From Candidatus Buchananbacteria bacterium (lineage in GTDB: Bacteria > Patescibacteriota > Patescibacteriia > 2-01-FULL-39-33): DNA of 64,000 nucleotides. Each line of letters begins with the position of its first letter. Positions within the stretch are counted from its first letter, which is position 1. Below are positions 21,124 to 61,208 of the stretch, one piece after another. Location: contig JBAYGU010000001.1 of NCBI GenBank assembly GCA_041666505.1, forward strand, positions 477 through 64,476. Direction: 5' to 3'. Both the position numbers and the translations under genes were made by a program. The notes under the pieces are model-generated. The model made no database searches, was not told the origin of the DNA, and worked only from the letters and a program-made list of their open reading frames with translations.

Positions 21124-22752
21124 TTAACTGATCTTTTTTGCTTGCTTCCTATCCGCCATCGGCAATGAAAAACAGAACTTGCTGCCTTTGTTTTTACCGG
21201 GCGATTCCACCCAGATGCGGCCGCCCATATTCTCTACCAGGACGCGCGCGTAATATAAGCCCAAGCCAGTCCCCTCGGTATTGACCTTGGCCGAATCCTT
21301 GCCGCGGGTGAATTTGTTGAATAATCGTTTGATGTCGTCAGCATCCATACCCATGCCGGTATCTTGAGAAGTAAAAACGACAGACGTGCCCTCTTGATGC
21401 AGGCCGACCATGATCTCGCCTTGCTTGGTGTATTTGATGGCATTATCGATTATATTGGAAACGATGTCTTTTATCTTCTGCGCGTCCGCCGCGACTTTCG
21501 GCACCTTTTCTTTACTCATGAAGGCCAGCTTCAATTTGCGCGCCTTGGCTTTCTCTTGGAAATCATTGACCATCGACTTGGCGACTTCCGTCAGATCCAC
21601 TGGCTCGATAGTGAACTCAATCCTGCCCGCCTCGATACGCGATATATTAAGTAGGCTTTCCACTAAATTAATTAATCGTTCGGTCGAGACGAATATCTTG
21701 TCGATGCTTTCCTTGACTGGTTTAGTCATCTTGCCAAAACTGCCTTCCAAAAGCATCGAAGAATAGCCTTTGATGATCGTGAGCGGCGTCCTCAGCTGAT
21801 GCGAGGAGATCGACAGGAATTCCGATTTGGATTCATCTAATCGCTTCAATTCCTTGTTGGCGCTCGCCAAATCCTTCGTGACTTTATTCAATTTTTTATT
21901 AAGCGCTTCCATTTCCTCGCGGCGATGGACTTCGTGAAGTACTGAGCGAACAAGCAACACGGCAAAGAATAAGGTAATAATAAATATGACCACCCTGAAA
22001 TAAACAGAAATTTGCGATGTTTGAAATATTTGTAAAAAAGTTATAACTATTAAAAATACAGAGAATAATTCCGTTGCAATTACTTTAATATTCATCAAGT
22101 GGTGCTTGATTATCGCATAAGCCACTGCTGCGACGTAAAAAGTTACCAATATATTAGTAATGGGCGGAATGGGTATTTTATACCACAAAAAATAATTAGT
22201 AGACCCGCCGATAAATCCGATTGTCATTCCGACTAATACATAAATAATTTGAATTTTTATGATTCCCTCTGATTGAATATATTTCTTATAAAGTAGAGAA
22301 CAAGAATAGACTACGTAAAAAAACCAAATAATCAAAAAAGGGGCGAATGCTGGACCGGCCATTGGCCAAAACTTAAAAGTTAAAATCGGTTCGACGCCAA
22401 TGACAAATAGGGGGGTAAAATCAAGTATTAAAAAGATGAGGGAAATGATGAACGTCAGAATCAAAAATTTTCTTCTTTTTGGAAGCAAACCGACAAAAGA
22501 ATAAATAAAATATAAATAAGTAAATGGAATAAAAATAGCTGGAGCCATCAATAGACGGCACCAAAATAAGGCTGAGATCGGATCACTGGCCAATTGCCAA
22601 TAATAATATCCGATGCTCCAAAAAGCCACAGTAAAAGCAAAAAGTGAAAAGGAGGCATTAACTTTGTCTTCTTTATTGCTAAAAAAAACAAAAGTACCCA
22701 GAAATATACTGCTAAAAAAATTAATTATTGCAACGATGGCGTAAATATTCAT
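21124..22752 (-). CDS. Membrane sensor histidine kinase
   Basis: About 7 N-terminal TM helices, an H-box (SHQLRTPL) and HATPase_c G-boxes (GTGLGL). Confidence 0.8.
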   Translation of the reverse strand: MNIYAIVAIINFFSSIFLGTFVFFSNKEDKVNASFSLFAFTVAFWSIGYYYWQLASDPISALFWCRLLMAPAIFIPFTYLYFIYSFVGLLPKRRKFLILTFIISLIFLILDFTPLFVIGVEPILTFKFWPMAGPAFAPFLIIWFFYVVYSCSLLYKKYIQSEGIIKIQIIYVLVGMTIGFIGGSTNYFLWYKIPIPPITNILVTFYVAAVAYAIIKHHLMNIKVIATELFSVFLIVITFLQIFQTSQISVYFRVVIFIITLFFAVLLVRSVLHEVHRREEMEALNKKLNKVTKDLASANKELKRLDESKSEFLSISSHQLRTPLTIIKGYSSMLLEGSFGKMTKPVKESIDKIFVSTERLINLVESLLNISRIEAGRIEFTIEPVDLTEVAKSMVNDFQEKAKARKLKLAFMSKEKVPKVAADAQKIKDIVSNIIDNAIKYTKQGEIMVGLHQEGTSVVFTSQDTGMGMDADDIKRLFNKFTRGKDSAKVNTEGTGLGLYYARVLVENMGGRIWVESPGKNKGSKFCFSLPMADRKQAKKIS

Positions 22753-22823
22753 AAAAACAAATTAAAAACCCGAGTCAATGCTTTTATTATAGCATTTTCT
22801 CGGGTTGATTCAAAATGTTCGAC

Positions 22824-23783
22824 TTATTTCTCGGCAATAAGAATGCCATGAATGCGCAACGGTTCATAGATTATTCGATAATCCTTAAATCCTGCTTTTT
22901 CGGCTATTTCCACTAGATCGCTAGGATCGCGATAGATCATGGGCCAATTGATGACCCAATGAAGGAAGTGTTGTTCCGGATTCGGAGCGATATTGCATGT
23001 CAGATATACACCATCGGGCTCTAGTGATTCCCGGATCTTTTCCGACAATCGTATCGCCTTTCCTTGTTCGATGTAATCAAGTAGCCCCAACATCTCAATG
23101 ATCTGCGGTTTGAAGTCGACCGCTACCATGGCCACTGCCGCAACACTAATCTGTTTTATTTCGATTTGACTACATACACCATAGCACTTAGCCAAATTTC
23201 TGGCATATTCCAGCGCATCCTTATCGATATCGACAAGAATCGCCTTAACGATTACACCCCTGTGTTTAAACTCGGCAATAATTTCAATCACTGCTTGAGC
23301 CGAACCGCAAGCCAATGAAATCAATCTGACTTCACCATGACCACTAAATCTCAATATTGCCCGTCGCACCTCTTGCCGCACCAACTTGTAACGATTACGA
23401 ACAGCCTGAGCGTTCATCATGCCAATCCAGAAATTATCTATAATCTTTCTCCAGCCGAAACTGAAATTGTGATTGTAGATAATGTCCAAGGCTTTCCACG
23501 AAGCCGCACCATCCTTGATCTGACGATTACCAGGCCCCAAGCCATCAAACCACATAGTGTTGGTCTGTGGCCTATCGATTCCAAATTTCTTATACACCAA
23601 TTTCTTAGCGATCACGTACAGTGTGAGCAACCAAGAAATTGGCAGGGTGAGTATGTAAAGCCAGCGGCGATGCTCATAGGAATCCAGCTTAATCGGTTGA
23701 ACAAATGAGGCTTCAATATTACCCGACTCTGACATTTCCGGAGCCGTAGCTATTTCCACCCCAGAGAGAGTATATTTATTCAT
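22824..23783 (-). CDS. Class I SAM-dependent methyltransferase with N-terminal TM helix
   Basis: Motif I-like LISLACGSAQAV plus an acidic loop VDIDKDAL. Confidence 0.55.
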   Translation of the reverse strand: MNKYTLSGVEIATAPEMSESGNIEASFVQPIKLDSYEHRRWLYILTLPISWLLTLYVIAKKLVYKKFGIDRPQTNTMWFDGLGPGNRQIKDGAASWKALDIIYNHNFSFGWRKIIDNFWIGMMNAQAVRNRYKLVRQEVRRAILRFSGHGEVRLISLACGSAQAVIEIIAEFKHRGVIVKAILVDIDKDALEYARNLAKCYGVCSQIEIKQISVAAVAMVAVDFKPQIIEMLGLLDYIEQGKAIRLSEKIRESLEPDGVYLTCNIAPNPEQHFLHWVINWPMIYRDPSDLVEIAEKAGFKDYRIIYEPLRIHGILIAEK

Positions 23784-23805: not shown

Positions 23806-24990
23806 CTAGAACTTCACAGTTCCGCTAATTGCACCTGTCCAGACGTCAGCAGAAATTTCCCGGCCGTCAGCCTTATTGCTGCCCCAGCCGCGGGAAAGTC
23901 CCACTGTCAGGTCCCACGACTTCGCGATTTGATAATTGAGCCGACCGGCGACAAACACTCCGTCCGTATCCGGCGTCATGAAGTCCGCCGTCTGGTCAGG
24001 AACTGCTGCGGACATATAGCCCGTGCCGCCGCCGATCGTCAGGCGATCATTCACTTTGTAACTAGCGCCGACTCGGGCCGCCCAATTATCCGCCCAACCG
24101 GTCTTGACCGGCTTGGTGAACGTGAGCTTGTCGAATTTGATATCGACCGACTCCAACGAACTCTTGGAGTAGCCGTACCAAGTCCAATCAGCCACTAAGA
24201 GCAATCGATCAGTCGCCTTCCAAGCTCCGGAAACTTCGAGTTCGTCCGGAAATTGGAAATCAGCTTTGATCTCATCCCGCAAATGGAACGGACTCAGGAT
24301 TTCCGTGCGGCCATTCAAACGCGCCTTAATGCTCGAAGTATAATTCATTCCGAACGCCCAATTCTCATTCGGCTGATAAAACACGCCAACGGCCGCGCCG
24401 ATTCCGGCTCCGATCGCTTTCGTGTCCGTCTCGATCGGCAGGTTATGCCGATTGATGTCGAATGGCCCGTGCCACGTCAGCATAGTGTCGGCAATTATCA
24501 AGCCGAGTCCGATTGACCACTGATCGTTTAATCTCTGAGTAACGTACGGTTCAATGTACGTCCCGGATATAAGAGTCCGAGAATCTATCCTGCCGAAGCT
24601 TTTTTCGAAGCTCGCACCCATGCCGAATTCCGTCCGGATCTTCAAGCCGGTGACGGTATCGCCATCGACCCTTTGAGCCCAGCACAGATACGGCAATGTA
24701 TGCGCCACGTTCTTCGACTCAATAGTTCGACCAAATCGATCCGTAATACGGAATTTCGGCACCATGGTTTCGAAACCGAATTCCAATTGGCTGCCATCAA
24801 TCTGGATCATACTGCCCAGATTCTCCGGCAGCCATGGTCCGTCCGGATTCGAGCCATTGCCGACACCTGTCGGCCCAGTTACAGCCAAGCGATCCAATCC
24901 TCCGCCATAGGCCAAAGGATTAAACATTACGGCCATAATGGCCAAAAGTACCAACAAAATTAACTTTACTGAATTGTAATGAACTTGCAT
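23806..24990 (-). CDS. FadL/OmpP1/TodX-like outer-membrane beta-barrel protein
   Basis: Signal peptide, amphipathic beta-strand periodicity and a C-terminal ...ISGTVKF ending in Phe. GC of about 56% far exceeds neighbouring genes. Confidence 0.55.
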   Translation of the reverse strand: MQVHYNSVKLILLVLLAIMAVMFNPLAYGGGLDRLAVTGPTGVGNGSNPDGPWLPENLGSMIQIDGSQLEFGFETMVPKFRITDRFGRTIESKNVAHTLPYLCWAQRVDGDTVTGLKIRTEFGMGASFEKSFGRIDSRTLISGTYIEPYVTQRLNDQWSIGLGLIIADTMLTWHGPFDINRHNLPIETDTKAIGAGIGAAVGVFYQPNENWAFGMNYTSSIKARLNGRTEILSPFHLRDEIKADFQFPDELEVSGAWKATDRLLLVADWTWYGYSKSSLESVDIKFDKLTFTKPVKTGWADNWAARVGASYKVNDRLTIGGGTGYMSAAVPDQTADFMTPDTDGVFVAGRLNYQIAKSWDLTVGLSRGWGSNKADGREISADVWTGAISGTVKF

Positions 24991-25166: not shown

Positions 25167-25862
25167 TTATTTCTCGCTTTCCAGTCGAGCTTTTAATAAA
25201 AATATCGTATCGGTTCGCAATTTCGCTCGAGCCCAATCTTTTTGAGAAGCCGTCAACATCTCTCCCAGGCCATCGAGAATATGGCGATTGTCCATCTTTT
25301 CCAACATCTTAATGCATTTAGCTACAACTTCCTCAAAAGTCAGCTTAGCACGATTTTCCACTAATTTCTTATTGATCGGCCACATGTTTTTGGCAAAAAA
25401 ATAAACGTCATAGACATCGCGACTCGTCTTGCCTATCCTCTCATACATCGCCATGAGTTTATTGGCGAACATATCTTCCTTAACCATAACCGGCATAGAG
25501 ATGCCCAGCAACGTTTTCACTTCGTATTTCGATCCGAAATTCCGTCGATTGACTTCGATTTTTATATTCTGAGACTTCAAGTCATGCGCGATAATAACGA
25601 TCAGATTAAATCTCTTAATCTTGGAATCAATGATCTTACCGTAGCCTGCGGCTATCTTTTGGATTTTTTCAAACACTTCCTTTTCCTTATCAACAACCAA
25701 AAGATCAAGATCGATATCGACGGAGTTGCGATCCAGGCCGTAAAACATCAAAGCCGCCGTTCCGCCTTTAAAACCCAAATACGGGGACAGCGAAGTGTCA
25801 GAAAAAATATCTTTCAATATCTGCAATAGAATATTCTTATGTTTGGGATAGTCTAATGTCAT
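25167..25862 (-). CDS. abiEii: AbiEii/AbiGii-family nucleotidyltransferase toxin (type IV TA)
   Basis: Hallmark LGFKGGTAALMFYGLDRNSVDIDLDL. Confidence 0.7.
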   Translation of the reverse strand: MTLDYPKHKNILLQILKDIFSDTSLSPYLGFKGGTAALMFYGLDRNSVDIDLDLLVVDKEKEVFEKIQKIAAGYGKIIDSKIKRFNLIVIIAHDLKSQNIKIEVNRRNFGSKYEVKTLLGISMPVMVKEDMFANKLMAMYERIGKTSRDVYDVYFFAKNMWPINKKLVENRAKLTFEEVVAKCIKMLEKMDNRHILDGLGEMLTASQKDWARAKLRTDTIFLLKARLESEK

Positions 25863-26476
25863 ACGGTTTGAATGTTATCCAGTTTATCGTTTTTATAATA
25901 ATTGAAATATTTTTCAACTTTCTTAGCCATTCTTTGATTGCGGTAAATCGGCAAAATTTCAAAAACTTTTTTCCAGTCCAAAACGCTCAGATTGTCGAAA
26001 TGATAATCCTTGCTGATATATATCCGATCCAAAAATGCCCGCTCTTTTGTCGCGACAGCCACGCCATTTACATGCTCGATCCCCGCCGTATTGCTCAGAA
26101 CAAAATCCTTCATCCTGATAAACGATATTTTTTGCCCGTCCGCCTCAATCTCCCTCGTAACATAGGAAGCAACAAAAATATTTCCGTAATACTGGAAATT
26201 CACTCCGGTCCGAGTCAAGACTGTTTCAAAACTGACATAAGAGGGAGTATAGATCCGCGTAGCCAATTCAAAACGATCATAATTCTTATCCTTGGCATAA
26301 ATGCCGCGATGGACCCTGATTAATTTTCCCCTTTTTACATAATTGCTCAATCTAACCCTGATTTTAGCCTCTCCTATTTCACCCCACAGCAAAGAAATGT
26401 CTTTTGTGGAAAAGACAGTTTTTGGCGATCTGAGCAACATATCGATATATTGGCCTTTTGTGAGTTTATTAACCAT
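25859..26476 (-). CDS. abiEi: AbiEi-family antitoxin/transcriptional regulator
   Basis: RGKLIRVHRGIYA signature of the AbiEi N-terminal domain. It overlaps the toxin by 4 nt. Start is taken at MVNKL (26476) rather than the longer track ORF ending at 26545. Confidence 0.65.
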   Translation of the reverse strand: MVNKLTKGQYIDMLLRSPKTVFSTKDISLLWGEIGEAKIRVRLSNYVKRGKLIRVHRGIYAKDKNYDRFELATRIYTPSYVSFETVLTRTGVNFQYYGNIFVASYVTREIEADGQKISFIRMKDFVLSNTAGIEHVNGVAVATKERAFLDRIYISKDYHFDNLSVLDWKKVFEILPIYRNQRMAKKVEKYFNYYKNDKLDNIQTV

Positions 26477-26517
26477 ATACTTACTAGATGTTAGTTTAAA
26501 ACTTACTAACAGTACAA

Positions 26518-26545
26518 TTATAGCACATATATAAAATATATGCAA
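26518..26545 (-). promoter_or_regulatory. Putative sigma70-type promoter for abiEi (TTGCAT-16/17-TATAAT)
   Basis: On the minus strand, TTGCAT lies at 26545-26540 and TATAAT at 26523-26518, about 45 nt upstream of ATG 26476. The recurring TTTTTGTCTAAAATTAGCTAA motif lies immediately upstream. Confidence 0.35.
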
Positions 26546-28082: not shown

Positions 28083-29372
28083 CTACTTCAACAGATCATC
28101 CAGCTCGCAAGACAGCAAGGCGGATTTATTTAGCAAGATCTGCTCATTGGGATTCAGATTATCCGCAGTCATCCGAATAAGCTTGGTGGTGATGCTGTCG
28201 CCTAACATAATCCTGCCGGTTTTCTTGAAATATTTCTCTGTCATTTGAAAAAAGTGGGTCGCATACTGTTTGAGAACTTCCTGCGGAGCGAGCCGACTAC
28301 TTATACCGTTATTCGTAAATTCTGTAATCTTCATTAAATTATCATCTATCATATTATTCATTTTACCATCTGTCGCAATAATCCAATCTTCATCAATCGC
28401 ATATTTAACAAGAACAATTTTCCCATCATCTGTTTCATACAAAAATTTAAACAAAAAAATATCCTTAAACATATCCTCAAAAATTACCAACTTTTGAAGA
28501 ATTTTAATATCTCTAATTTTATATTCATCCAAAAGACGCAGATAGCTCTCTCGCCAATTCTTTAACCAATTGGCAATGAAAGCCTGATCCAAGAAAAGCG
28601 GGGTCAAATCATGTTTGAGATTGGCATCCGTCTTCGGACTGTTTAAAATTTTTATCGTAACCTTGTCGAATAATTCTTTCGGATTCTTAATATCGATACC
28701 TTTGGCGATGAGATAATCGAAATCAGGCACGATTTTTTTGCCCATATACCACAGCAGGTCATAAATATCGCGCCCTTTTTCTTCATAAATTTCTTTCCCT
28801 GTCCCGCGAGAGCCGCGCAGAAAAATTGCGGCTAATTTGCTTGCCATGAGCGCACCCATATTATATGTCCAGATGACAAATGACAACTGTCCGCGATTTA
28901 TCGGCTGGCGGTCAATTACGGTTTTAGAAGCGGCAAAATGATTCAAATCAATTTTTACGTGGATCTGATCCGAAGGCCAGCCAAGGCTAAGTTCCTTGCC
29001 GACATGGAACTTCAAGATCAATCCTCTGCCGGCAGTTATTTTTAACGTTAAGAAACCGGCTCCGGCTCCATATGTATTTGCAAAATAATCTTCAATCTCC
29101 CTTTTCAATTCGCCCAAAAATTCCTCTGTCACCTCATGAGAAACCTCAAAATCCAAATCAACCGACATACGATCCAGGCCATGGATTATGCGCAGCGCGG
29201 AACCGCCATACATGACCCAATCGCCGTATTCCTGATGATGATAAATAAAATTCAGGACATAAAACTGCAGCTCTTCTTCAAGGGCGTTAAGGCGCGTCTC
29301 GGCATCGATACCGCCATAAGCTGACAGGCTCTCGATTTTCCTTTTCAAAATTGCGATTATCTGTTCGCTCAT
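28083..29372 (-). CDS. AbiEii-family nucleotidyltransferase (second, 429 aa)
   Basis: VMYGGSALRIIHGLDRMSVDLDFEV. Confidence 0.65.
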   Translation of the reverse strand: MSEQIIAILKRKIESLSAYGGIDAETRLNALEEELQFYVLNFIYHHQEYGDWVMYGGSALRIIHGLDRMSVDLDFEVSHEVTEEFLGELKREIEDYFANTYGAGAGFLTLKITAGRGLILKFHVGKELSLGWPSDQIHVKIDLNHFAASKTVIDRQPINRGQLSFVIWTYNMGALMASKLAAIFLRGSRGTGKEIYEEKGRDIYDLLWYMGKKIVPDFDYLIAKGIDIKNPKELFDKVTIKILNSPKTDANLKHDLTPLFLDQAFIANWLKNWRESYLRLLDEYKIRDIKILQKLVIFEDMFKDIFLFKFLYETDDGKIVLVKYAIDEDWIIATDGKMNNMIDDNLMKITEFTNNGISSRLAPQEVLKQYATHFFQMTEKYFKKTGRIMLGDSITTKLIRMTADNLNPNEQILLNKSALLSCELDDLLK

Positions 29373-51322: not shown

Positions 51323-51354
51323 AAAAAAAGAGGCGTCGAATCGGCGCCTCTTTT
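51323..51354. terminator. Bidirectional terminator between convergent units
   Basis: GAGGCGtcgaatcggCGCCTC flanked by A7 and T4. Confidence 0.6.
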
Positions 51355-51368
51355 ATAAAATGCAAATA

Positions 51369-51776
51369 CTAGCCCTTCAAAACATTATTAGTCAAATTAT
51401 CCATAACGAAGGCAGTGATAGCATAAGCAGCAAAAATAATAATGATACCAATAATAGCCTGCTGGATCATTTTTTTCGCTTTTTCTACTTTCTTGCCTTC
51501 TCCGCCATCAGTCATCCAAAGGAACCCAGCCCAAATAATGTAAAGTACCAAAAGCACGCCTAAAAATCCGATTAATATTGATACTAAACTTCCAATCCAT
51601 AAAACCAAATCCTGACTAGTTCCGGTACCAGAAAGCTGCGCATTAGTGTTAAAAGCATTCAAATTAGCCAGCCAACCATCATTGGCGCCAAAAGCCACCA
51701 ACGGCATGCCCATCAGCACGCTCAATCCGGCAAACGATGTCAAATACTTGCCGTATTTTTTTAATGTTTTCTTCAT
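51369..51776 (-). CDS. VirB2/TrbC-like small membrane protein, paralog 1
   Basis: Sec signal peptide followed by two TM helices with a conserved LW.GF.WMT..GE..KVEKAKKMI core. Tandem with four paralogs. Confidence 0.5.
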   Translation of the reverse strand: MKKTLKKYGKYLTSFAGLSVLMGMPLVAFGANDGWLANLNAFNTNAQLSGTGTSQDLVLWIGSLVSILIGFLGVLLVLYIIWAGFLWMTDGGEGKKVEKAKKMIQQAIIGIIIIFAAYAITAFVMDNLTNNVLKG

Positions 51777-51807
51777 AGTTTTTTTTATTTTAGTTATTAT
51801 ATTTTTA

Positions 51808-52248
51808 TTAATATGGATATACCTGCCCCGGCCCTCCCGGAAATAAAGGATCTAATATTGGCTGACCAGATTGGTTTGTCGTCTTGCTTAAACTGCTCAT
51901 CACGAATTGCGTAATACCATAAGCGGCGAAAACTATTATCAATCCGATCACCGCATTTTTTATCATGTCTTTGGCAGTCTGCACTTTTTTAGCATCATCC
52001 GCGGATAAAAATCCCCACATTATGCCGGCATAAATCAGCACCAGCACCAAGGCGACGCCTAAAAGAGATAAGACAACCCCGACTATAGAGCCGATAAACT
52101 TGACTATGTCGGAATTTTTCTTCAAGTCTGATCCGGCAGCGACATCCAAATTACTATACAAGCCGCCAGCCAGCGCGAACTGCGCGCCAAAAACCAAAAA
52201 AATGACAACAAATGAGATGATTGAATTTCTTATGTATTTATGATTCAT
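51808..52248 (-). CDS. VirB2/TrbC-like small membrane protein, paralog 2
   Basis: Same architecture as paralog 1 (IYAGIMWGFLSADDAKKVQTAKDMI). Confidence 0.5.
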   Translation of the reverse strand: MNHKYIRNSIISFVVIFLVFGAQFALAGGLYSNLDVAAGSDLKKNSDIVKFIGSIVGVVLSLLGVALVLVLIYAGIMWGFLSADDAKKVQTAKDMIKNAVIGLIIVFAAYGITQFVMSSLSKTTNQSGQPILDPLFPGGPGQVYPY

Positions 52249-52307
52249 AACGTAATTCTTATTCCAAGGGGCTCGATAAATCGAAGCCCCTATGGAATAA
52301 AATATTA

Positions 52308-52694
52308 TTAAGCGCCGATAGTGGTGCCTGTAATGGTTTGCAATTGAGAGAAAACAAAACTGGCGATAGCGTAAGAAGCAAAAATAATTATCAAGCCGAT
52401 AATGCCTGAGTAAATCATTTTCTTGGCCTTGTCTACCTTATCCGGCTCGCCGACTGCAGTCATCCAAATGAAGCCTCCCCAAAGGATGATAAGGACTGCG
52501 ATAACGCCCAAGAATCCAAGGATAACCTGGATTATGCCTTTGATCAAATCACTTAAGGTAGTGGTGCCCAGTCCCAAATCAGTCATCTGTGGAATATCTC
52601 CGGCAGCTCCGGCGATAGTCGGCAAGGCTAATAGCCCCAGCACGCCCAGAGTCATGGCTCCGGCAAACATTTTTTTCGTTGTAATTTTTTTCAT
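52308..52694 (-). CDS. VirB2/TrbC-like small membrane protein, paralog 3
   Basis: ILWGGFIWMTAVGEPDKVDKAKKMI core; AxA signal cleavage site. Confidence 0.5.
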   Translation of the reverse strand: MKKITTKKMFAGAMTLGVLGLLALPTIAGAAGDIPQMTDLGLGTTTLSDLIKGIIQVILGFLGVIAVLIILWGGFIWMTAVGEPDKVDKAKKMIYSGIIGLIIIFASYAIASFVFSQLQTITGTTIGA

Positions 52695-52839
52695 GTTTTC
52701 ACCCCCTTTCTCTGTCCAGTGCCCGCCGACCGCCGGTCGCCAATGGCGGAAGCGAGTACGGATAGCAGAGGAAATTGAGACGGCAATTCGGCCATCCCTT
52801 AATATATGAATTAATTATACAGTAAATTGAGCGACATTC

Positions 52840-53190
52840 CTAGCCAGGCGCTTGCAAGACATTCCTTAAGAAGAAAGTGATTACAGCGTAGGCAGTGAAT
52901 ATTATGAATAAGCCCAAAACCGCGTATTTCATCATCTCTTTGCCTTTGTCCACATTCTTCGGATTGACACCCGCCAGCAGATACAGCAATCCGCCATATA
53001 TGAATGCTATGAGAGCGAGAACGCCGGAAATTCCTAATGCCGCTTGAATGAATCTATTGGCTAGAAGCGGAATTGGATTACCAGATTCCAAGCCCAAGGG
53101 ATCGCCTATTTGAACGGCCGCTGCTGCAATTGAGGGCAGGATCAATGAGCCTAAAGCTAATATGGAAAATATTATTTTTTTCATAAACAT
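52840..53190 (-). CDS. VirB2/TrbC-like small membrane protein, paralog 4
   Basis: IYGGLLYLLAGVNPKNVDKGKEMM core. Confidence 0.5.
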   Translation of the reverse strand: MFMKKIIFSILALGSLILPSIAAAAVQIGDPLGLESGNPIPLLANRFIQAALGISGVLALIAFIYGGLLYLLAGVNPKNVDKGKEMMKYAVLGLFIIFTAYAVITFFLRNVLQAPG

Positions 53191-53211
53191 TACAATTTTT
53201 AATTAAGCAAA

Positions 53212-54003
53212 TTAATCAGTATATTCGCAAGAACAATTAAAGTAACCCGGCTGACTCGGAGAAGTAACCGCATTGAATGACCTTGAAACAGTATTAAGTC
53301 TTGTACATACAGCCAAACAAGAAACTTGTGCTTTTTCATCTCCATTAGCTCTTAACGAATCAGTCTTATAAAATGTAGTAACCGCTTGAATTTGTCCATC
53401 AGGCCTAACCGTTCCTGCTGGAACCTCAGATGACCCTGTTGAACCAGTAGCCGCCGCACTCGGAGCCTGAGTATCATATCCTTGGCAAACGCCCCAGCCG
53501 GCTGAACCGCTCACATTCCCGGTTATTTTCGATAACATATTCATTTTATCCGTGCCGCCGATGAGTGTCAGGATAACAAAATTCATAATGGAATAGCCAC
53601 CGAAAATAAAAGCCAAACCAATTATAACCGCCTTTAAAGTTCCTTTGGCTTTTTCCAGATTGGCGGGATTAAATGATACAGTCAAATACATTAAACCGGC
53701 ATAAACGAACATCAAGATAGCCACTGCGCCACTAACAGCCACAATCATATTGGACGCGTTAACGAATACTTGGATGAAATCGCACAAGCCGCATGGCCCG
53801 GAAGCAACAAATGCCGTAGCAGCCTGAGGACCATTCTGTCCCTGAATCGTAGTCGGAGTCTGAGCGCCGCCAGTCGCGCATTTTACATTCGCCAAAATCG
53901 AATTGGACATATCAATTGCCGCCCAAGCCGGAGTCGCAAAAAAAATTGCGGCGATAAGCGCCATGGCGATACTAATTGACTTGATTGGCTTAGAAATAAT
54001 CAC
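53212..54003 (-). CDS. Enlarged VirB2/TrbC-like paralog with Cys-rich extracellular N- and C-terminal extensions
   Basis: Central VYAGLMYLTVSFNPANLEKAKGTLK core. Flanked by CATGG...GPCGLCDF and CQGYD...CLAVC...NCSCEYTD regions. Confidence 0.45.
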   Translation of the reverse strand: MIISKPIKSISIAMALIAAIFFATPAWAAIDMSNSILANVKCATGGAQTPTTIQGQNGPQAATAFVASGPCGLCDFIQVFVNASNMIVAVSGAVAILMFVYAGLMYLTVSFNPANLEKAKGTLKAVIIGLAFIFGGYSIMNFVILTLIGGTDKMNMLSKITGNVSGSAGWGVCQGYDTQAPSAAATGSTGSSEVPAGTVRPDGQIQAVTTFYKTDSLRANGDEKAQVSCLAVCTRLNTVSRSFNAVTSPSQPGYFNCSCEYTD

Positions 54004-54017
54004 AAGGGATAGATAAA

Positions 54018-55421
54018 TTAATTAGATGGAGAAACAATCGTCTGAGCGATTTTCTGAGTCACAATCTGAATTACATCATTAATGCCCTGCGGATCAACTA
54101 CTAATAGGAATCTTTCGGCCATTTCCTTGAAAGCCTGTTCGGCGGCGAGAGCGTCCATGCCATAATACCAAGTCTTGGCAGTCAATGTCTGAGTCGAAGC
54201 TGCATGAAGATCTTCATTTTCCTGCTGCCCGGTTATCAGAGCCTTCTGGGCTGTCGGAGCATTAGTCACCGCCAGATACTTGGTGATTTCTTCCGGCTGA
54301 TTCAAGAAAAGCAGGAAGTTCCAAGCCTCATTCGTATATTTAGATTTTTTGGAAACTGATTCCAGCCAATAATTGGCATAATTGACGGTCGGATTACCCG
54401 GAATCTGCGGGATCGGCGCAATGCCGAAATTCACGCGCGAACTGGCGCGAATCTGGGCTAAGTGATAATTATAGCCGAAAAAGAATCCGACCTTGCCCGC
54501 CATGAAGGCCTGCAAAGAATTGGGCATGGTATTGTTCCAGGAGTAGACGCTTTTTACCGGTGAGGCGAAATCGGCATAGAACTGCAAAGCAGTCTGTCCA
54601 GGATTTACCCGTTTGCCGTCTTTCGTAATGCCAGAGAAGAAGGTGGGCATGTTCCTGACATCGCTCATGATGGCGCCGCTTTGCATCATTAAGACCGAGA
54701 TTATATCGAAGCTTCTTTCTACATTGAATCCCGTTCCCAAGGCGGTTCCGGATTGGATGATATTATTCTCGAACTCGAATTTAGTCGCCTTAATGACTGC
54801 TTCTTGAAAGGCGCTCCATGTTGTCGGAATCTGCGTGATGCCGGACTGGTTAGTTATATCCTTGTTATAGAACATGACCAAGCTATCAAGCGACAGCGGC
54901 AAACCGTAAACTTGATCGCCGATTACGGCATCATTGTAAATGGTATCCGCATATTTATCCTTTATCTGCCTTAAGGTGGGCGCCGTTTCATTCCTGATTT
55001 CTATGACTTTTTCCTTATTCAAATTGAAGAAACTTCCCTTCTCGATGATATAGCCCATCTTGATCTGAGCCGGCATAGGCTGGATCTTTGCCTGGTATTT
55101 CCTTAGCCAGCTTTCCGGTATGGAAAAAATATCCGGCCCGCGATCTTCGGCCAAAGCGTTGATAAGCTCCGTCTCATATTCCTCATAGCGGAACTTGCGG
55201 TAATTTATGGTGATATTCGGGTGTACTGTTTGATAATCCTTGATGACCTGATCGAACGCATCCTGATCATCCCAGACGCGCCAATAATTAAGCGTAATCG
55301 GCTTGACCGCCGCCTGCTGTTCCGCCGTCGTCAGCTTGCAGCCGAAGCCGGACACAGTCAAAAAAACTGCCGCCAGAAAGAGGTAGAGAATTTTATTTAA
55401 TGTCTTCTTCGTCATTGGCAT
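54018..55421 (-). CDS. Extracellular solute-binding protein (ABC-type, family 1), lipoprotein-like
   Basis: SBP_bac_1-like profile with a signal/lipobox-like LTVSGFGC. Start is taken at the MPMTKK Met rather than the track's longer N-terminus. Confidence 0.65.
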   Translation of the reverse strand: MPMTKKTLNKILYLFLAAVFLTVSGFGCKLTTAEQQAAVKPITLNYWRVWDDQDAFDQVIKDYQTVHPNITINYRKFRYEEYETELINALAEDRGPDIFSIPESWLRKYQAKIQPMPAQIKMGYIIEKGSFFNLNKEKVIEIRNETAPTLRQIKDKYADTIYNDAVIGDQVYGLPLSLDSLVMFYNKDITNQSGITQIPTTWSAFQEAVIKATKFEFENNIIQSGTALGTGFNVERSFDIISVLMMQSGAIMSDVRNMPTFFSGITKDGKRVNPGQTALQFYADFASPVKSVYSWNNTMPNSLQAFMAGKVGFFFGYNYHLAQIRASSRVNFGIAPIPQIPGNPTVNYANYWLESVSKKSKYTNEAWNFLLFLNQPEEITKYLAVTNAPTAQKALITGQQENEDLHAASTQTLTAKTWYYGMDALAAEQAFKEMAERFLLVVDPQGINDVIQIVTQKIAQTIVSPSN

Positions 55422-55458
55422 AATTTGCAATCTCAATATACATTTATTATAACACATT

Positions 55459-58400
55459 TTATGGAACTGCAATAGCATTATCCACTTCGCCAGCTGGCGG
55501 TACTTCAAAAATATCTTTAGTATTAATTGCGGTAAATCTTTTTTTCAATCCTTCAAAGGCCGTTTCAGCTGCCCTATTTTGAAAGGTGCGTCTGTCTTCA
55601 TTAAAATAAGACGCCTCCACTAACTTCTTAAGTTGTTCCGTTTTTTTCGAGTCAAAATGGATATCATTAATTTCTTCCGTAGTCAGGCCGCTGAGCCATT
55701 CCCTGGTCTTTTTTTTCTGATCATCCCGAAGCTTTCCTTTATTAAGCAGGATTTCCTTTACTAATTCTTCCAGTGTCTGGCGCTTGGCTTTTGTTTCAGA
55801 AACTTCAACTTTTGGTTCTTCCACTGCTGTCTCAGACTTTATTTCAGTCACGCTTCTTTCACCTTCCTGAAAAGTAATTCCCGGGATTTCCTTTTCCACT
55901 ATCGGCAAGCCTATCGGAACATTGCCTGCTTTTTTTTGTCTCAAATCTTCCAATGCGATACGGCCTCCAGTTTCACCTGCTCCGCCTTTCGGATTATTTG
56001 CGCCAACGGCTTCCGATTCCATATCTTTAGTCCGCGGTCCTTCTAATGGCCGCCTAGGATCGAAGGGCAAAACTGGCGGCACATCCCAATCCTTGCCGAT
56101 CGGCAGCTCAGGGTTTTTCATATCGAATGAGTAGCTGAATTTATTCGTTACTGATCCCGACATAACTCCCGCATCGATATTCTTACCGGATATCGTCGCC
56201 AAAACATGGCTATTGCCGGCATCATCAATAATCCTCAATTCGCCGAAACGGAAAGGTATATTGCCATCCTGCATGCTGTTTTTGGCGCCGAATAATTTAG
56301 AAATGGAATCCCCCAGATTAATCTTGCCTGAGCCGTCAGTCGAATCAGTCAGATAGCTTAAGCCCGCTTTATTGTCTCCCTCTGTCGGGAATATCGCCAC
56401 TTTAAGATGTTTGGCCAGTTCCCCTTTGCTCGCCCATTCAGCCAATTGATCCCTTAATCCGGCCAATTTCGTATCCACGCTGCCGTCAGGATTAGTGCCG
56501 AATTCTTTGACCGCGTCCTTGGCGTTTGCCGATAAATTCTCCAATATTCTAGAAGCATCGACCACGACATTGCCGGACGCATCCTTATTCATATAGAACA
56601 TCTGCTGCTTGCCCTCATGCTCGATCAAGCGATTGAAGAATGATGACATTTTCTTGCCCGGTTCATCATGCCAATCAGCCCGAGCATGCTTAGCCAGCCC
56701 TTCCTGCAGCTTGCTGGCCACGCTGACATTTTCCGTTACTTGCGTGTGAGTCTCATTAGGTATTATTCCGCTTTCTTTTAATGACTTCAATAATTCCGGA
56801 TCGATTCGACCAGTCTTGGGATCGAGTTCAATAGGACTTTTTATAATTGAATTTCCTTTGCTATCCAATAACTGGCCATCTCTGAATGCCAGATGCTGCA
56901 CGGCGCCTTCGCCGGCCGTTCCGTGATCGCCTTTGAACCAATGATACATATGTTCCAGGGCGCTTTCCGCTTTAGACGTTCTGCCCAATACATGCTCGCT
57001 GAATTGCCCAGTTATCCATTGGCCGATCGCACCCGCAGCCAAGCCAGTTCCTGCGCCTATTAAAAAACTCTTTTTTCTTTCCCAGCGTTTATAAGCCTCG
57101 AAATTATTATCGTTTTGTTCGATATTGCCGGTTAAATCAGCTTTGATTTCATTTATCAGCGCTTGCATTTCATGACCATCGGGCGACAGATTGAATTTTT
57201 TTCTGATATCTTTTAACGCCACTTTCAAATCCTTCATAGCGATCAGCTTTGTCTTATGCGCTTCGCCTTCCGCCTCAGAAACGCCGATCAAGTCGACTGA
57301 TTTTTCTTTTTCCAACTCAATGCGCGCCATCACATCAGCGATGGCTTTTTTATCCTCATCGGTCAAATTCTCCCTGGCCATGATTTCCGCCAGGCTCGCC
57401 TGCAATTGCTCGGCGCGCTTAAGGTCATAATTAAATTCCCTGATTTTATTCGTTCTTTTGGCATCATCATCAACTTCAATGCCCAAAGTCGAACGACGCA
57501 AATCCATTCCTCGATCATACTGCAGATCGCGAGAACGGCGCATGGCAGTAAACGTTCCGCCCATGCCGGCACCGATTAAAAGCGGCGCCAGCCACGGCGC
57601 TACTCCGGCAACAGTAACTAGCCCGCCCATTGCCGCCAATCTGGCCGTACCCTTGCCAATCACAGCGCCCGCGATTCCGCCGACTACGCCATAAGTCACA
57701 GGATTAGCTATTACTTTATTGAGTATGGGAATATTTTCTGTCGCGTCGACGAATTTTTCATACCACTTCAAAACCGGCTTCGGCTTGGTTTCATACAAGT
57801 CTTTCTGTTTCAATCCTAACTGAATATCCAAAGCCATCTCCGCCTTGACCTGCATTTCTATATTTGCCGCCTGTTCCGGACCAAATTCCTTTCCTAATTC
57901 TTTCACCTGGCTCTCCACTTGTTTCCGATAACCTTCAGCCAAAGCGAATAAATTATTGGCATACATCAAGCCTTCGGCTTCATCCTCCCGGCCGGTTGCG
58001 CCGAACTTCTTATTCTTGTTTTTCAATAGGGCGATAACCCGCACCTCTACGGTCTGATCGAACTCAGCGCGAGTCATATCGGAAGTGGCATAATCGACGA
58101 ATAATTGACCGACCACCAAATTGATTTCGTCATCTTGCACTAAGTCGCCTTTTTCATCAGCATCCATAACCTCATGAGTGAACTCTTCCAAAACAGCGTC
58201 CAATATCTCATATGATTTGTCAATATTTTCTGATTTGATTCCGCTGGTCAGCATCCTGGCTTCTATTTCCGCCATTAGATTCTTATTGTCCTTGATCGCC
58301 GCCAAAGCCTCTTTGTAATATTTCATCAAATAGCCCTTTTCGCCCAAGCGGACTGCAGCCCGCGTCAAAAAATTAGATTGAGATTTATCCAGCATGCTTC

Positions 58401-60045
58401 TGAGTTTCTGCTCCGCTTCACGCCAAGCCATGGCTTTGACAATTTCCGAGATATCAACGATGAAAATCTTTTCTCGCGATTTTTTAATGACTTCTAACTC
58501 TCCGGCGTTTTCCGGCTTGTGTTCGATCTGCAACTGTTCGACAATCGGATCAACAATCACCTTTTCTTTCGGAACAACTTCCAACTCGCTGGCGTTTCTT
58601 GAATCATGAGTAATTTGCAAAGGCGGTTTTATAACTCTTTTTTTAGGCGGTATGACTTCCAACTCGCCAGTACCCGGCTTGTGTTCAATCTGTAATGGTT
58701 CGTCATATGTGATCTCCAATGGCTTAATTTTCGGTTTTTCTTCCGGTTTCTTATCTTCCTGCAAAACAATCTCTCGACGTTTGCTCATCGCCTCCATAGC
58801 CAGCTGGTAATCCTTGTCAGCATCTCCGGTCGAACGCATATCCAACGACGCCAATACAGCTTCTAATTCCGTCCGCCAATGCTGTTCATCTCCCTTCATG
58901 TCCGGACGAATTTCAAAATATCCCCTGCTATTGGCTTGCAAGGTCTCAATTATACCGTTAATTTTCTTTAATTCCTCATCCAGCTTCTTCAATTTATCCC
59001 GATTAACCTCGCCTTCGCCGTCTTGAGCCGCTTTTTCCGTTACCTGCCTCAATGCTTCACCGGTCTGCAAAGGAAAATTATCAGAATCGACCGCATAATC
59101 AACGCCATCCTGATTAAGCGCCGCACTATTGCCCGCCTCCTTATCGGCCTTGGCCCAAGTCTGCCTCGTGGCATCTACCCATTGCCTTACCCTGCCCCTA
59201 ATAGCGCTTTTATTCGTTGATAAGCCATTATAAACTTGGTGCCAAGCGATTTTTTCTTGATGTTCCTGATCCGTCCCCTCCTTATCGCGTCCGATCTTTT
59301 CCAAAGTCTGTTCATACTGCTTCTTCAGATCTTTCGCCAATCTCGCCATGCTTTCCAAATCCTTTTTACGTTCTGCCAGCTTTCCGGCTTCCGTCTCCTG
59401 GCTCTTGGCAATAAGCTTCAGCTCCTCAATCAAGTCATCAACCGGAATGCCTTCGCGCTGGGAGCGATCATCCACTTTGACCTCAAAAGTCAGGTCAGCG
59501 CTGTCTTGAGCTTTATTTTTTGCATTCTCAACGCTTTTTATGATCCATTTTATGCGGTCGGATTTCTGCGCTTCGGGCAGATTCTTCAATATTTCCAGTC
59601 CTTCATCTACCTGGCTGATTATTTTTCTTCTAATCTCAATATTATTCGCAACTTTTTCCGGAGCCTGTTCGCTTACGTTAACAGTAGTTTCCGATTTCGA
59701 AGAAACTTCAATTTTTGCCTCGAACTCGGCTTTTAAGGCAGCGGCTTCGCGCTGGATCGCCTCAATCTCTTGCATGTCTTTTTGAAGATCCAAATCAGAT
59801 TCCTTGATTCCCAGCTCCCTTAATTCGGCCAATATCCTTTTTAAATCACCCTCAGTTTCCGCATTGATCTTATCAGCGCTTTCTTCCATTTTCTGTTTGA
59901 GCTTATCAAGAATTTCGCCCAAAGACTCCCGCCTGGCCAAGGCAACGTCTTCTGGATTTTTTATTTCTTCGATTTTTGCATCTTTAGACTCATCCATATT
60001 TATCCTATTTAATTTTTGACAGGATCCTTCTAATTTTTTCGTCAT
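55459..60045 (-). CDS. Giant (1528 aa) coiled-coil membrane protein with central glycine-zipper TM hairpin and internal ~25-aa repeats
   Basis: Uninterrupted 4.6-kb ORF. The N-terminal ~780 aa are charged and coiled-coil. A TM block (GVVGGIAGAVIGKG...LLIGAGMGGTF) follows. Three PLQIEHKPGTGELEVIPPKK-like repeats are present. Confidence 0.6.
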   Translation of the reverse strand: MTKKLEGSCQKLNRINMDESKDAKIEEIKNPEDVALARRESLGEILDKLKQKMEESADKINAETEGDLKRILAELRELGIKESDLDLQKDMQEIEAIQREAAALKAEFEAKIEVSSKSETTVNVSEQAPEKVANNIEIRRKIISQVDEGLEILKNLPEAQKSDRIKWIIKSVENAKNKAQDSADLTFEVKVDDRSQREGIPVDDLIEELKLIAKSQETEAGKLAERKKDLESMARLAKDLKKQYEQTLEKIGRDKEGTDQEHQEKIAWHQVYNGLSTNKSAIRGRVRQWVDATRQTWAKADKEAGNSAALNQDGVDYAVDSDNFPLQTGEALRQVTEKAAQDGEGEVNRDKLKKLDEELKKINGIIETLQANSRGYFEIRPDMKGDEQHWRTELEAVLASLDMRSTGDADKDYQLAMEAMSKRREIVLQEDKKPEEKPKIKPLEITYDEPLQIEHKPGTGELEVIPPKKRVIKPPLQITHDSRNASELEVVPKEKVIVDPIVEQLQIEHKPENAGELEVIKKSREKIFIVDISEIVKAMAWREAEQKLRSMLDKSQSNFLTRAAVRLGEKGYLMKYYKEALAAIKDNKNLMAEIEARMLTSGIKSENIDKSYEILDAVLEEFTHEVMDADEKGDLVQDDEINLVVGQLFVDYATSDMTRAEFDQTVEVRVIALLKNKNKKFGATGREDEAEGLMYANNLFALAEGYRKQVESQVKELGKEFGPEQAANIEMQVKAEMALDIQLGLKQKDLYETKPKPVLKWYEKFVDATENIPILNKVIANPVTYGVVGGIAGAVIGKGTARLAAMGGLVTVAGVAPWLAPLLIGAGMGGTFTAMRRSRDLQYDRGMDLRRSTLGIEVDDDAKRTNKIREFNYDLKRAEQLQASLAEIMARENLTDEDKKAIADVMARIELEKEKSVDLIGVSEAEGEAHKTKLIAMKDLKVALKDIRKKFNLSPDGHEMQALINEIKADLTGNIEQNDNNFEAYKRWERKKSFLIGAGTGLAAGAIGQWITGQFSEHVLGRTSKAESALEHMYHWFKGDHGTAGEGAVQHLAFRDGQLLDSKGNSIIKSPIELDPKTGRIDPELLKSLKESGIIPNETHTQVTENVSVASKLQEGLAKHARADWHDEPGKKMSSFFNRLIEHEGKQQMFYMNKDASGNVVVDASRILENLSANAKDAVKEFGTNPDGSVDTKLAGLRDQLAEWASKGELAKHLKVAIFPTEGDNKAGLSYLTDSTDGSGKINLGDSISKLFGAKNSMQDGNIPFRFGELRIIDDAGNSHVLATISGKNIDAGVMSGSVTNKFSYSFDMKNPELPIGKDWDVPPVLPFDPRRPLEGPRTKDMESEAVGANNPKGGAGETGGRIALEDLRQKKAGNVPIGLPIVEKEIPGITFQEGERSVTEIKSETAVEEPKVEVSETKAKRQTLEELVKEILLNKGKLRDDQKKKTREWLSGLTTEEINDIHFDSKKTEQLKKLVEASYFNEDRRTFQNRAAETAFEGLKKRFTAINTKDIFEVPPAGEVDNAIAVP

Positions 60046-60187
60046 CGATCTTTCTCAAGACTCGGCTGACTGCCGCATCCTTTTCTTTTTTTAATGCCAG
60101 CAATCTGCTTTCAAACTCAAGATAAATCGCCTCCAGTTCCTCTGGAGTCTTGATTGATGCAGCAGCATTATTTCTTTTGGCCGGCAT
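60005..60187 (-). CDS. Small basic hypothetical protein (60 aa)
   Basis: Sits immediately upstream of the giant gene in the same operon. Confidence 0.3.
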   Translation of the reverse strand: MPAKRNNAAASIKTPEELEAIYLEFESRLLALKKEKDAAVSRVLRKIDDEKIRRILSKIK

Positions 60188-60196
60188 ATAAGAAAA

Positions 60197-60514
60197 TTAA
60201 GCGTTCAAATATACAGCGCGGAATTCCAACATTGCCGCCGCCGTTATTTCTTCGATATTCTTCACTCGTCCCTTTAAAAACATCTGGAATTCCGGCTGGG
60301 AATAATCAACCGAGCCTTCCAGCATGCGATTCAGCTCTTGCGCCGTCTCCTCATCCAACTCCTTAGTTATGGATGAAAAAATAAAAGCCTGCAGGCGCGG
60401 ATACATACTGTTTACCATCGCCTCTTTTAATTCCGGAGACAAGTTATCGAACTTTTTTTCCTCGATTACTTTTTCCAAAAAAGCCCGTATTTCTTCTGGG
60501 ATAATTGTCGACAT
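60197..60514 (-). CDS. Hypothetical protein (105 aa), first gene of the cluster operon
   Basis: Acidic helical protein preceded by an AT-rich divergent promoter region. Confidence 0.35.
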   Translation of the reverse strand: MSTIIPEEIRAFLEKVIEEKKFDNLSPELKEAMVNSMYPRLQAFIFSSITKELDEETAQELNRMLEGSVDYSQPEFQMFLKGRVKNIEEITAAAMLEFRAVYLNA

Positions 60515-60686
60515 ATTTTATCGGCGCTAAAAATTTAATTGGCTTGTTCTATAAATATATTATACAACTTTTTTTAAAAATAATAAAATACCACTTATAT
60601 GCAATCAGACATATGATGATAAAAAAAATATTATTGCAAATTTGACGTTTGACGATAACGCTGATAAAAGCTAATATTATCTTAGA

Positions 60687-61208
60687 ATGATTGGAAATTA
60701 CCCTATGCCCACAGCCAAGAAAATCGGAGTCAAATTGGTCAAACAGACGCCTGGCTATTGCGGTCCGGCCAGCCTGAAGATGGTCTTAGATTATTTCGGC
60801 GTCAAAAAAAGCCTGGAAGCCTTGGCTAAAATGTCGAGCACGCCTGCTGCCGGAAAAACTGCCGGCGCCTCAGGCAAGAATCTTCTGGCGGCGGCCAAAA
60901 AATTAGGCTTTTCCGGCTCCATGAAAGACTGGGCGAACTTCAGTGATATCCGCAAATACGTCGAGAAGCAAGGCATCCCGGTCATCATTAGCTGGTTTTC
61001 AGGCTACGAGAGCCACTTTTCCGTCGTCGTTAAGATCGATAAAGATAATATTTATTTCCTGGACCCGGAATACTGCGCGCTCAGGAAAATGAGCCTGAAG
61101 AGATTCGAGAAGATCTGGTTCGAATTTGAAGGCGGACTTGGCCAGTCAACGCCCAAGCTCATCGTCAGGCGAATCATCGTCATCCAGCCGAAAAAATCTT
61201 CCAAATAA
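60687..61208 (+). CDS. Standalone peptidase C39-like (papain-fold) domain protein
   Basis: QTPGYCGPASLKMVLDYFG (catalytic Cys context) and a downstream His (ESHFSVVV). Confidence 0.55.
   Translation: MIGNYPMPTAKKIGVKLVKQTPGYCGPASLKMVLDYFGVKKSLEALAKMSSTPAAGKTAGASGKNLLAAAKKLGFSGSMKDWANFSDIRKYVEKQGIPVIISWFSGYESHFSVVVKIDKDNIYFLDPEYCALRKMSLKRFEKIWFEFEGGLGQSTPKLIVRRIIVIQPKKSSK

Follow-up and report, generated by a model that had tools for sequence, protein, structure and literature searches.

The 64-kilobase (kb) window analyzed here, a stretch of one contig (JBAYGU010000001.1) from a Candidatus Buchananbacteria bacterium, carries nine protein genes on the minus strand between positions 60514 and 51369, among them those for five small pilin-like proteins, a solute-binding lipoprotein and a very long protein that we call the giant. 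A preliminary description, which placed the nine open reading frames (ORFs) correctly, had read them as one surface system: a filament or adhesion apparatus independent of any type IV secretion system (T4SS), with the giant as its stalk or ruler and a neighboring C39-type peptidase as the processor of its subunits. Our analysis points instead to two adjacent, separately conserved modules. Module A (55459-60514) encodes a DUF5663-like protein, a 60-amino-acid (aa) protein and the giant; module B (51369-55418) encodes the solute-binding protein (SBP) followed by the five pilins. With moderate confidence, we take the SBP-pilin operon to be a VirB2 pilin array of the Patescibacteria and the giant triad to be separate from it.

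The case for two modules comes from related loci (labeled L001 to L094) that we compared with the window. We scanned 80 metagenome loci containing SBP orthologues (45-82% identity) with a hidden Markov model (HMM) built from 27 pilins. In every locus with at least 500 nucleotides (nt) past the SBP (70/70), a same-strand pilin ORF begins within 450 nt, and loci with at least 6 kb past the SBP contain one to nine pilins. L001, L006, L007 and L008 show the same succession, as do L002 and L089, in which the contig ends leave only partial ORFs. Genes upstream of the SBP differ from locus to locus, including those for SMC, PNPase, BipA and DNA methylase. The conserved N-terminal domain of the giant (N-domain) is found in 4 of 85 SBP-containing sources (84 loci and the window), namely the window, L001, L002 and L019, and L002 and L019 carry the same giant. 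Pilin ORFs, in turn, are absent from the giant-bearing loci L005 and L091 to L094. Most related loci therefore have the SBP-pilin operon without a giant, giants with their DUF5663 partners exist without pilins, and module A stands beside module B in a single lineage. This pattern does not support one surface system of nine genes.

The relative orientation of the two halves also flips in relatives. In L002 and L006 the triad and the SBP-pilin unit occupy opposite strands, and in L008, L012 and L014 the same is true of the corresponding pair of a 60-aa-like ORF and a large-protein gene. In L009, the closest relative (SBP 82% identical), the slot of the giant holds a different, unrelated protein of 887 aa that follows a 60-aa-like ORF. 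The large neighbors in L006 (1027 aa) and L008 (1120 aa) were considered as divergent giants and rejected, having no BLAST or N-domain HMM similarity to it; they represent other large-protein families that have only the 60-aa partner in common. A second large-protein family (578-1149 aa), its members related through their C-terminal ~400 aa and each preceded by a 60-aa-like ORF, fills the giant's slot upstream of the SBP in close relatives. One of its members carries a precomputed FtsK_gamma match.

Together with these strand changes, the junction between the halves speaks against the earlier view that 60514-51369 is a single unit. A perfect match to an extended -10 element, TGtTATAAT, precedes the SBP gene and might be part of a promoter belonging to the SBP-pilin operon itself; a simple promoter scan of the window gave the same counts as in shuffled sequence. 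ATG 59997, and not the listed 60045, is the most likely start of the giant: AGGA lies 9 nt upstream, the ATG sits 7 nt past the stop of the 60-aa ORF, and homologues begin there too. The SBP most likely starts at ATG 55418 rather than TTG 55508, so that neither gene pair overlaps. (Residue numbers of the giant are counted from the listed start, 60045.) The outer boundaries proposed earlier are both visible, as an AT-rich spacer (60515-60686) and as a terminator-like hairpin at ~51325-51357 that was not reported by a simple terminator scan.

Several points weigh against the interpretation we favor. The window and L001 keep all nine genes on one strand, in the same order and with short gaps, so that they may be co-transcribed here. 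A module of a small ORF and a large protein stays beside the SBP-pilin unit in ~13 loci despite inversions and replacement, a persistence that could reflect functional coupling and not mere synteny. Moreover, we infer T4SS dependence of the pilins, described below, from a published survey and not from this organism. To our knowledge, proteins of the PF18895 family have never been shown to make a filament, pilus formation is unproven in any monoderm, and no T4SS is known to make use of an SBP that lacks a permease. The single apparatus of the preliminary description draws on the same shared strand and the same ~13 loci, and on the lack of a T4SS ATPase in the 64-kb window. It is difficult to reconcile with halves that occur apart, that switch orientation and that, in L009, have exchanged the giant for an unrelated protein. 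The properties of the giant's tail, the peptidase and Patescibacteria pilin arrays in general, taken up below, count against it as well, and we regard it as very unlikely.

The pilin assignment itself is correct. All five small proteins exceed the gathering threshold of the PF18895 T4SS_pilin profile (29.1-46.1 bits against 26.6), bearing out their earlier classification as VirB2/TrbC-type pilins. For PF04956 (TrbC/VirB2), the best score of 27.6 bits extends over the whole profile and lies just under the threshold of 27.9, with the other pilins at 17-25 bits; two of the five pass the cut-off of 40 for NF045849, the 'Mbov_0395 family pilin-like conjugal transfer protein'. They are also paralogues, as had been claimed, since pairwise BLASTP gives E values of 1e-7 to 1e-15 at 28-49% identity, with the 263-aa protein aligning to the others at 25-29%. 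Hydropathy peaks and the alignment agree with the predicted Sec signal and two-helix architecture: in each protein a hydrophobic, signal-like stretch at the N-terminus precedes two strongly hydrophobic helices, which are joined by the basic loop motif G..W....(P/G)KKV.KAK.MI. Cleavage of the signal peptides is predicted from A-x-A motifs. All five have one-to-one orthologues in L001, and therefore the paralogues are old and individually maintained. PHROGs returned no phage-family match for the giant, the two small proteins of module A or two of the pilins, and a relationship to phage tape-measure proteins, chaperones or holins was rejected.

The pilin that directly follows the SBP is distinct from the rest. 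In the window it is the 263-aa protein, in which the core (aa ~82-146) is flanked by GPCGLCD before the first core helix and GWGVC after the second, and which carries a ~110-aa C-terminal extension with more cysteines. Across related loci the first pilin usually exceeds the others in length (median 153 aa compared with 137 aa), and 52 of 64 first pilins contain at least two cysteines, compared with 31 of 114 later ones. In the window and in L009 to L088, this pilin usually has C..C..CD before the first core helix and W.VC after the second. These motifs suggest that the first pilin is a specialized subunit stapled by disulfides.

As stated in the preliminary description, no VirB4, VirD4 or VirB6 gene adjoins the array. 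Among the scanned window ORFs of at least 150 aa we found no family match to a T4SS ATPase, channel, relaxase or ATP-binding cassette (ABC) transporter, and VirB4, alone or with VirB3, VirB6, TrsD or VirD4, was not found near the pilins in these ORFs or in the sampled related loci. Around the array, the window is free of T4SS genes for at least 51 kb to one side and 3.5 kb to the other. VirB4 and VirD4 were likewise not seen near any sampled SBP-pilin locus (L006 to L008 and the upstream ORFs examined): recurrent upstream ORFs of 900-1090 aa, considered as VirB4 candidates, proved to be SMC, and others PNPase, BipA or DNA methylase. From the absence of neighboring ATPase genes, the preliminary description inferred a new kind of apparatus. 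This does not follow, because arrays away from virB4 are already documented. A survey of 3035 Patescibacteria genomes with the same two Pfam pilin models (Quinonero-Coronel et al. 2025; PMC12102498) described 441 VirB2 arrays of 2-11 tandem pilin genes with a mean identity of 25% and a maximum of 54%. It found 2474 virB4 genes, mostly near dnaA, and a pilin near virB4 in only 1135 of 1948 assemblies, so distance from virB4 is common in virB4-bearing genomes (PMC12102498) and lends no weight to a T4SS-independent machine. With five adjacent genes at 25-49% identity, the window array is a member of the kind already described. In Southlakia epibionticum ML1, a six-pilin array that lies inside the T4SS cluster is essential, as is the T4SS (Wang et al. 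2023; PMC10633639).

The first gene of the operon encodes a family-1 SBP, as the earlier description of a lipoprotein-like SBP had implied. The listed 496-aa ORF matches PF01547 (4e-25, 89.8 bits), and F25 and the lipobox cysteine, C27, are invariant in 12 homologues. Its best solved relatives in the PDB bind sugars or oligosaccharides. It has 2465 homologues, the named ones coming from metagenome-assembled genomes (MAGs) of Patescibacteria, Parcubacteria and Candidatus Buchananbacteria. ABC permease or ATPase genes were found neither within 10 kb of the SBP in L006 to L008 nor among the scanned window ORFs. The SBP-then-pilin order appears to be unreported, as we found no mention of it in the open-access literature on Patescibacteria arrays.

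This strict association raises the alternative that the pilins are never filamentous and that two-helix subunits and SBP form a membrane complex for uptake or sensing, independent of any T4SS. Such a complex would account for the 70/70 gene order, for the lack of VirB4 and VirD4 near sampled loci and for an SBP with no classical permease or ATPase partner nearby, and a fixed hetero-oligomer would suit the one-to-one conservation of the paralogues. We know of no precedent, however, for an SBP and VirB2-like proteins acting as a transporter. The small proteins pass the thresholds of conjugation pilin families, and the homologous array of a Saccharibacterium sits within a T4SS cluster and is essential alongside it (PMC10633639). 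We therefore consider the uptake or sensing complex rather improbable.

In the interpretation we prefer, the pilins of module B would be exported by Sec, lose their A-x-A signal peptides and be seated in the membrane as helical hairpins. They may then be used by a chromosomal T4SS of the monoderm-conjugation type, which most Patescibacteria encode elsewhere, usually near dnaA, and may form a pilus or a channel extension towards the host cell. Since the paralogues are old and correspond one-to-one between relatives, each is probably a structural subunit in its own right, and the enlarged Cys-rich one at the head of the series is perhaps specialized. The co-transcribed SBP lipoprotein probably binds a surface glycan or oligosaccharide, of the host envelope or as a nutrient, together with the pilins.

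Module A revolves around the giant, which has no match in Pfam, NCBIfam, PHROGs or PDB sequences (a profile of the whole protein against the PDB also gave zero). The preliminary description saw a coiled-coil N-terminal half. Plain coiled coil is not what the model of aa 120-440 shows: with high confidence (pLDDT, the predicted local distance difference test score, 93.6), this region is predicted to fold into a helical domain that includes a small sheet; in the window giant its two conserved modules are separated by a helical insertion. Despite the confident model, no specific structural relative was found. Three ~25-aa repeats do exist, but they lie in the N-terminal half (aa 451-525) and not in the C-terminal half, where the preliminary description placed them. 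The glycine-zipper hairpin is likewise present as a Gly-rich hydrophobic hairpin at aa 778-832. Hydropathy gave no indication of a signal peptide. An AlphaFold2 model of aa 761-1528, made from a 5-sequence alignment, was too poor for a fold search (pLDDT 42.7).

The family to which the giant belongs is rare. A word-indexed search found only 7 homologues, and an N-domain HMM run exhaustively against 1.84 billion representatives retrieved 109 clusters (50% identity). A scan of genome contigs with the giant found one distant locus, in a MAG labeled Gammaproteobacteria, a label that is probably unreliable. A usual member has 1200-2400 aa and consists of the N-domain, the hairpin, ~200 aa, the third hydrophobic segment and a long C-terminal part. 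In at least 28 long members the core ends with the motif PF.PR.PLE, after which come tails of 12-1127 aa. Across 27 members, the core is similar in 351 of 351 pairs and the tail in 53. The window giant and P0135, for instance, are 47% identical across 851 aa of core and have unrelated tails, as do P0184 and P0191 (50% identity across 1241 aa). Pfam shows no recognizable domain in the window's 193-aa tail, and 24 scanned members yielded PP2C (4), protein kinase (3), GT9 (2), DUF218 (1) and FkbM methyltransferase (1) domains. A conserved N-terminal region joined to unrelated C-terminal domains is the hallmark of polymorphic toxins and effectors, and the giant family has it; no conserved downstream, immunity-like gene was seen across the contexts examined.

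This combination of a conserved core with unrelated, sometimes enzymatic tails (kinase, PP2C or glycosyltransferase) argues against a structural stalk or ruler, which makes that role for the giant unlikely and counts further against the nine-gene apparatus. The family could equally consist of membrane-anchored proteins whose enzymatic tails vary or of exported, polymorphic effectors that have dedicated partners. Should all three hydrophobic segments cross the membrane, the tail would be extracellular, a location that fits kinase and PP2C domains poorly unless the giant reaches another cell.

The partners are the two genes upstream. The window's 105-aa protein and its DUF5663 orthologues align over their full length; the orthologue in L005 scores 26.0 bits against PF18908 (threshold 23.7), and those in L006, L092 and L094 are recorded as PF18908. 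The DUF5663 profile found nothing in the PDB below E = 0.08. All 10 contexts of a giant homologue (the window, L001, L002, L005, L089, L091, two in L092, L093 and L094) have a DUF5663 gene directly upstream of it, and an ORF of 56-71 aa often separates the two. Orthologues of the 60-aa protein are 56% identical in L001 and 43% in L002, and matches to its HMM occur directly upstream of large ORFs in L005, L006, L008, L009, L011, L012, L014, L089 and L091. Two genomes have two modules of DUF5663, with or without the small ORF, plus giant: convergent at L005:8602-21054 and tandem at L092:9663-20440. One of the L092 giants ends in a Ser/Thr kinase domain. The MAG that carries P0007, a distant relative of the N-domain, also encodes a 644-aa VirD4/TrwB-like protein (weak Pfam matches) at L004:2310-4244, 8 kb upstream. 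This assembly, GCA_964465205.1, bears a Gammaproteobacteria label, yet DUF5663 and giant genes are present.

A second alternative couples the two modules. The giant would be exported by the Patescibacteria T4SS as a polymorphic effector and, for that reason, be encoded beside the pilin array. Its hydrophobic segments would enter the host membrane, its variable tail would act in or on the host, and the DUF5663 and 60-aa proteins would serve as chaperones or adaptors. Unrelated tails past a conserved motif, some with kinase, PP2C, GT9 or methyltransferase domains, are what such an effector would look like, and so are the lack of a signal peptide, the constant DUF5663 partner, the doubled modules of two genomes and the way in which the module of one lineage has stayed next to the pilin array through rearrangements. 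The small helical partners encoded upstream of LXG toxins, VirE2 and Eag-dependent effectors provide an analogy. Most giant-family loci examined, on the other hand, have no T4SS or pilin genes nearby, no conserved immunity-like gene was seen downstream, no secretion signal is known, the window's own tail lacks a recognizable domain, and kinase or PP2C tails would suit an ordinary membrane-anchored signaling protein equally. We judge this coupling unlikely. A bolder version, in which the giant is the first recognizable substrate family of the Patescibacteria T4SS, its N-domain bound by the DUF5663 and 60-aa partners, its segments entering the host membrane and its swappable tail acting on the host, with its gene beside the SBP-led array of a contact structure, strikes us as quite improbable. 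Under the two-module reading, the giant would be a membrane-associated polymorphic protein with small partners and not a structural stalk for the pilins.

The peptidase proposed to process the subunits is real, as the divergent gene at 60687-61208 (+) matches PF03412 (3e-16). It is a stand-alone, C39/C70-like protein of 173 aa without an ABC transporter domain. Its part in subunit processing is unlikely, however. Of 95 loci totaling 1.17 Mb, only the window and L009 have a C39 homologue as neighbor, and the pilin N-termini are classical A-x-A Sec signals in place of the Gly-Gly leaders of C39 substrates. Both observations also detract from the single apparatus. The features discussed are collected in Table 1.

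Table 1. Features of the two modules in the window and of a second large-protein family in related loci
Feature	Position	Strand	Evidence or remark
Pilin paralogue 5, 135 aa	51369-51776	-	PF18895 33.2 bits; NF045849 39.9; L001 orthologue 42% identical
Pilin paralogue 4, 146 aa	51808-52248	-	PF18895 40.8 bits; NF045849 45.9; 49% identity with paralogue 5
Pilin paralogue 3, 128 aa	52308-52694	-	PF18895 38.9; PF04956 27.6 (positions 1-97/98); NF045849 43.5
Pilin paralogue 2, 116 aa	52840-53190	-	PF18895 46.1 bits; L001 orthologue 53% identical
Leading enlarged Cys-rich pilin paralogue, 263 aa	53212-54003	-	PF18895 29.1 bits; alignment
Family-1 (carbohydrate-type) solute-binding lipoprotein, 466 aa from ATG	54018-55418	-	PF01547; first gene of the SBP-pilin operon
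Extended -10-like element TGtTATAAT	55454-55446	-	Sequence reading, consensus match only; in the 40-nt gap between giant stop and SBP start
Giant, 1512 aa from the probable start ATG 59997 (1528 aa from the listed 60045)	55459-59997	-	Rare polymorphic family
Giant: variable C-terminal tail, aa 1336-1528 (193 aa)	55462-56040	-	Tail comparison across the family
Giant: PFDPRRPLE motif, aa 1327-1335, end of conserved core	56041-56067	-	Motif P[F..].[PA]..R.P[L..]E
Giant: third Gly-rich hydrophobic segment, aa 994-1012	57010-57066	-	Hydropathy; conserved in homologues; absent from the preliminary description
Giant: Gly-rich hydrophobic hairpin, aa 778-832	57550-57714	-	Kyte-Doolittle peaks 1.64 and 1.77; family-wide
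Giant: three ~25-aa PLQIEHKP..GELEV repeats, aa 451-525; linker	58471-58695	-	Copy number varies between homologues
Giant: conserved N-terminal domain, aa 120-440	58726-59688	-	Modules EGIPVDDL... and HWRTELEA..RSTG..DY.LAMEAM.KRRE
60-aa helical protein	60005-60187	-	C-terminal DDEKI..IL..I motif; small partner gene just before the giant
105-aa DUF5663-like protein	60197-60514	-	First triad gene; PF18908 20.6 bits against a threshold of 23.7
Hairpin between A-run and T-run	51325-51357		Plausible bidirectional terminator, read from sequence; separates the last pilin gene from the convergent pgi-like gene
Second large-protein family members	L008:6264-9626; L009:4595-7258; L011:1631-3367; L012:396-3377; L014:3053-6502		

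The surroundings of the two modules are chromosomal. The window flanks hold housekeeping genes (tRNA ligases, RNase Y, ClpP, PGI, DHH) in an order collinear with the Patescibacteria genome GCA_041650895.1, whose syntenic locus, with the SBP-pilin operon, is at ~710-732 kb of contig JBAZKF010000001.1. PlsX and PFOR are encoded in the window as well, and the order pilins-PGI-DHH-ClpP-RNase Y-M48-YmdB is common to the window and L006, a 958-kb Patescibacteria contig. No relaxase, coupling protein or integrase was found that would mark a conjugative element. A tRNA scan and an Rfam search at gathering threshold over the whole window gave zero matches. Elsewhere on this otherwise monoderm-like contig, a FadL/TodX-type outer-membrane beta-barrel (PF03349, 1e-30) is encoded at 23806-24990 (-), where the GC content is 0.47-0.51 compared with ~0.43 overall; it could stem from horizontal transfer or a chimeric assembly, or be an unexpected feature of the envelope. 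Two AbiEii nucleotidyltransferase toxin genes at 25167-26545 and 28083-29372 (-), one of them with an AbiEi antitoxin, adjoin a low-GC stretch (0.34 at 22001-23000), and the region may be a small island of mobile or defense genes.

The one Patescibacterium that is genetically tractable cannot lead its epibiotic life without its T4SS and pilin array, and the function of the T4SS has been described as completely unknown (PMC10633639). In a large group of the Parcubacteria type the array is always SBP-led, which suggests that a step of glycan recognition or uptake is coupled to the pilins. The giants, for their part, form a family with a delivery-like conserved core, swappable enzymatic tails and dedicated small partners, which in one lineage lies beside such an array. 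Neither the SBP-led array nor the DUF5663-giant family, which is polymorphic, is described in the open-access literature we searched.

Against this background, the window array resembles the VirB2 arrays of Patescibacteria in its tandem small genes of the PF18895/PF04956 type with Sec signals and two helices, in their low identity, in its chromosomal setting and in a virB4 that is possibly distant. It differs from the published arrays in having the gene of a family-1 SBP lipoprotein at its head, as do all 70 related loci that could be assessed, and from that of Southlakia in having no T4SS cluster around it. Compared with the VirB2/TrbC conjugative pilins of Gram-negative T4SSs (PF04956) and with the NF045849 family of pilin-like proteins from Mycoplasma integrative and conjugative elements (Mbov_0395/MMCAP2_0565), its proteins agree in size, signal peptide, two helices, short basic loop and profile similarity; they depart from VirB2/TrbC pilins in a TrbC score just under threshold, in the lack of adjacent VirB3, VirB4, VirB5 and VirB6, and in forming a set of five paralogues, one of them Cys-extended. 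The SBP, similarly, is related by profile to sugar binders in the PDB and is like MalE/GanS-type proteins (PF01547), with the lipobox cysteine typical of monoderm SBPs. Unlike the SBPs of ABC transporters, it has no neighboring permease or ATPase genes, and its constant downstream partner is a pilin gene.

For the giant, the closest parallels are in layout. Small helical partners are encoded upstream of LXG toxins (the Lap proteins of the type VIIb secretion system), in the VirE1-VirE2 pair and, as Eag chaperones, for effectors with transmembrane segments. The giant's conserved helical N-domain, its motif before unrelated tails, its upstream small helical genes and the sometimes multiple modules recall the LXG/Lap and VirE1-VirE2 arrangements by analogy. 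It has no sequence or fold match to LXG or any other known trafficking domain, and no homology to these systems is detectable; unlike polymorphic toxins, its core is very long (1000-1500 aa) and contains hydrophobic segments, and an immunity gene is not evident. The claim of a categorically new surface machine does not hold, as the pilin array is of a known kind; what appears to be new about the array is its SBP-led arrangement.

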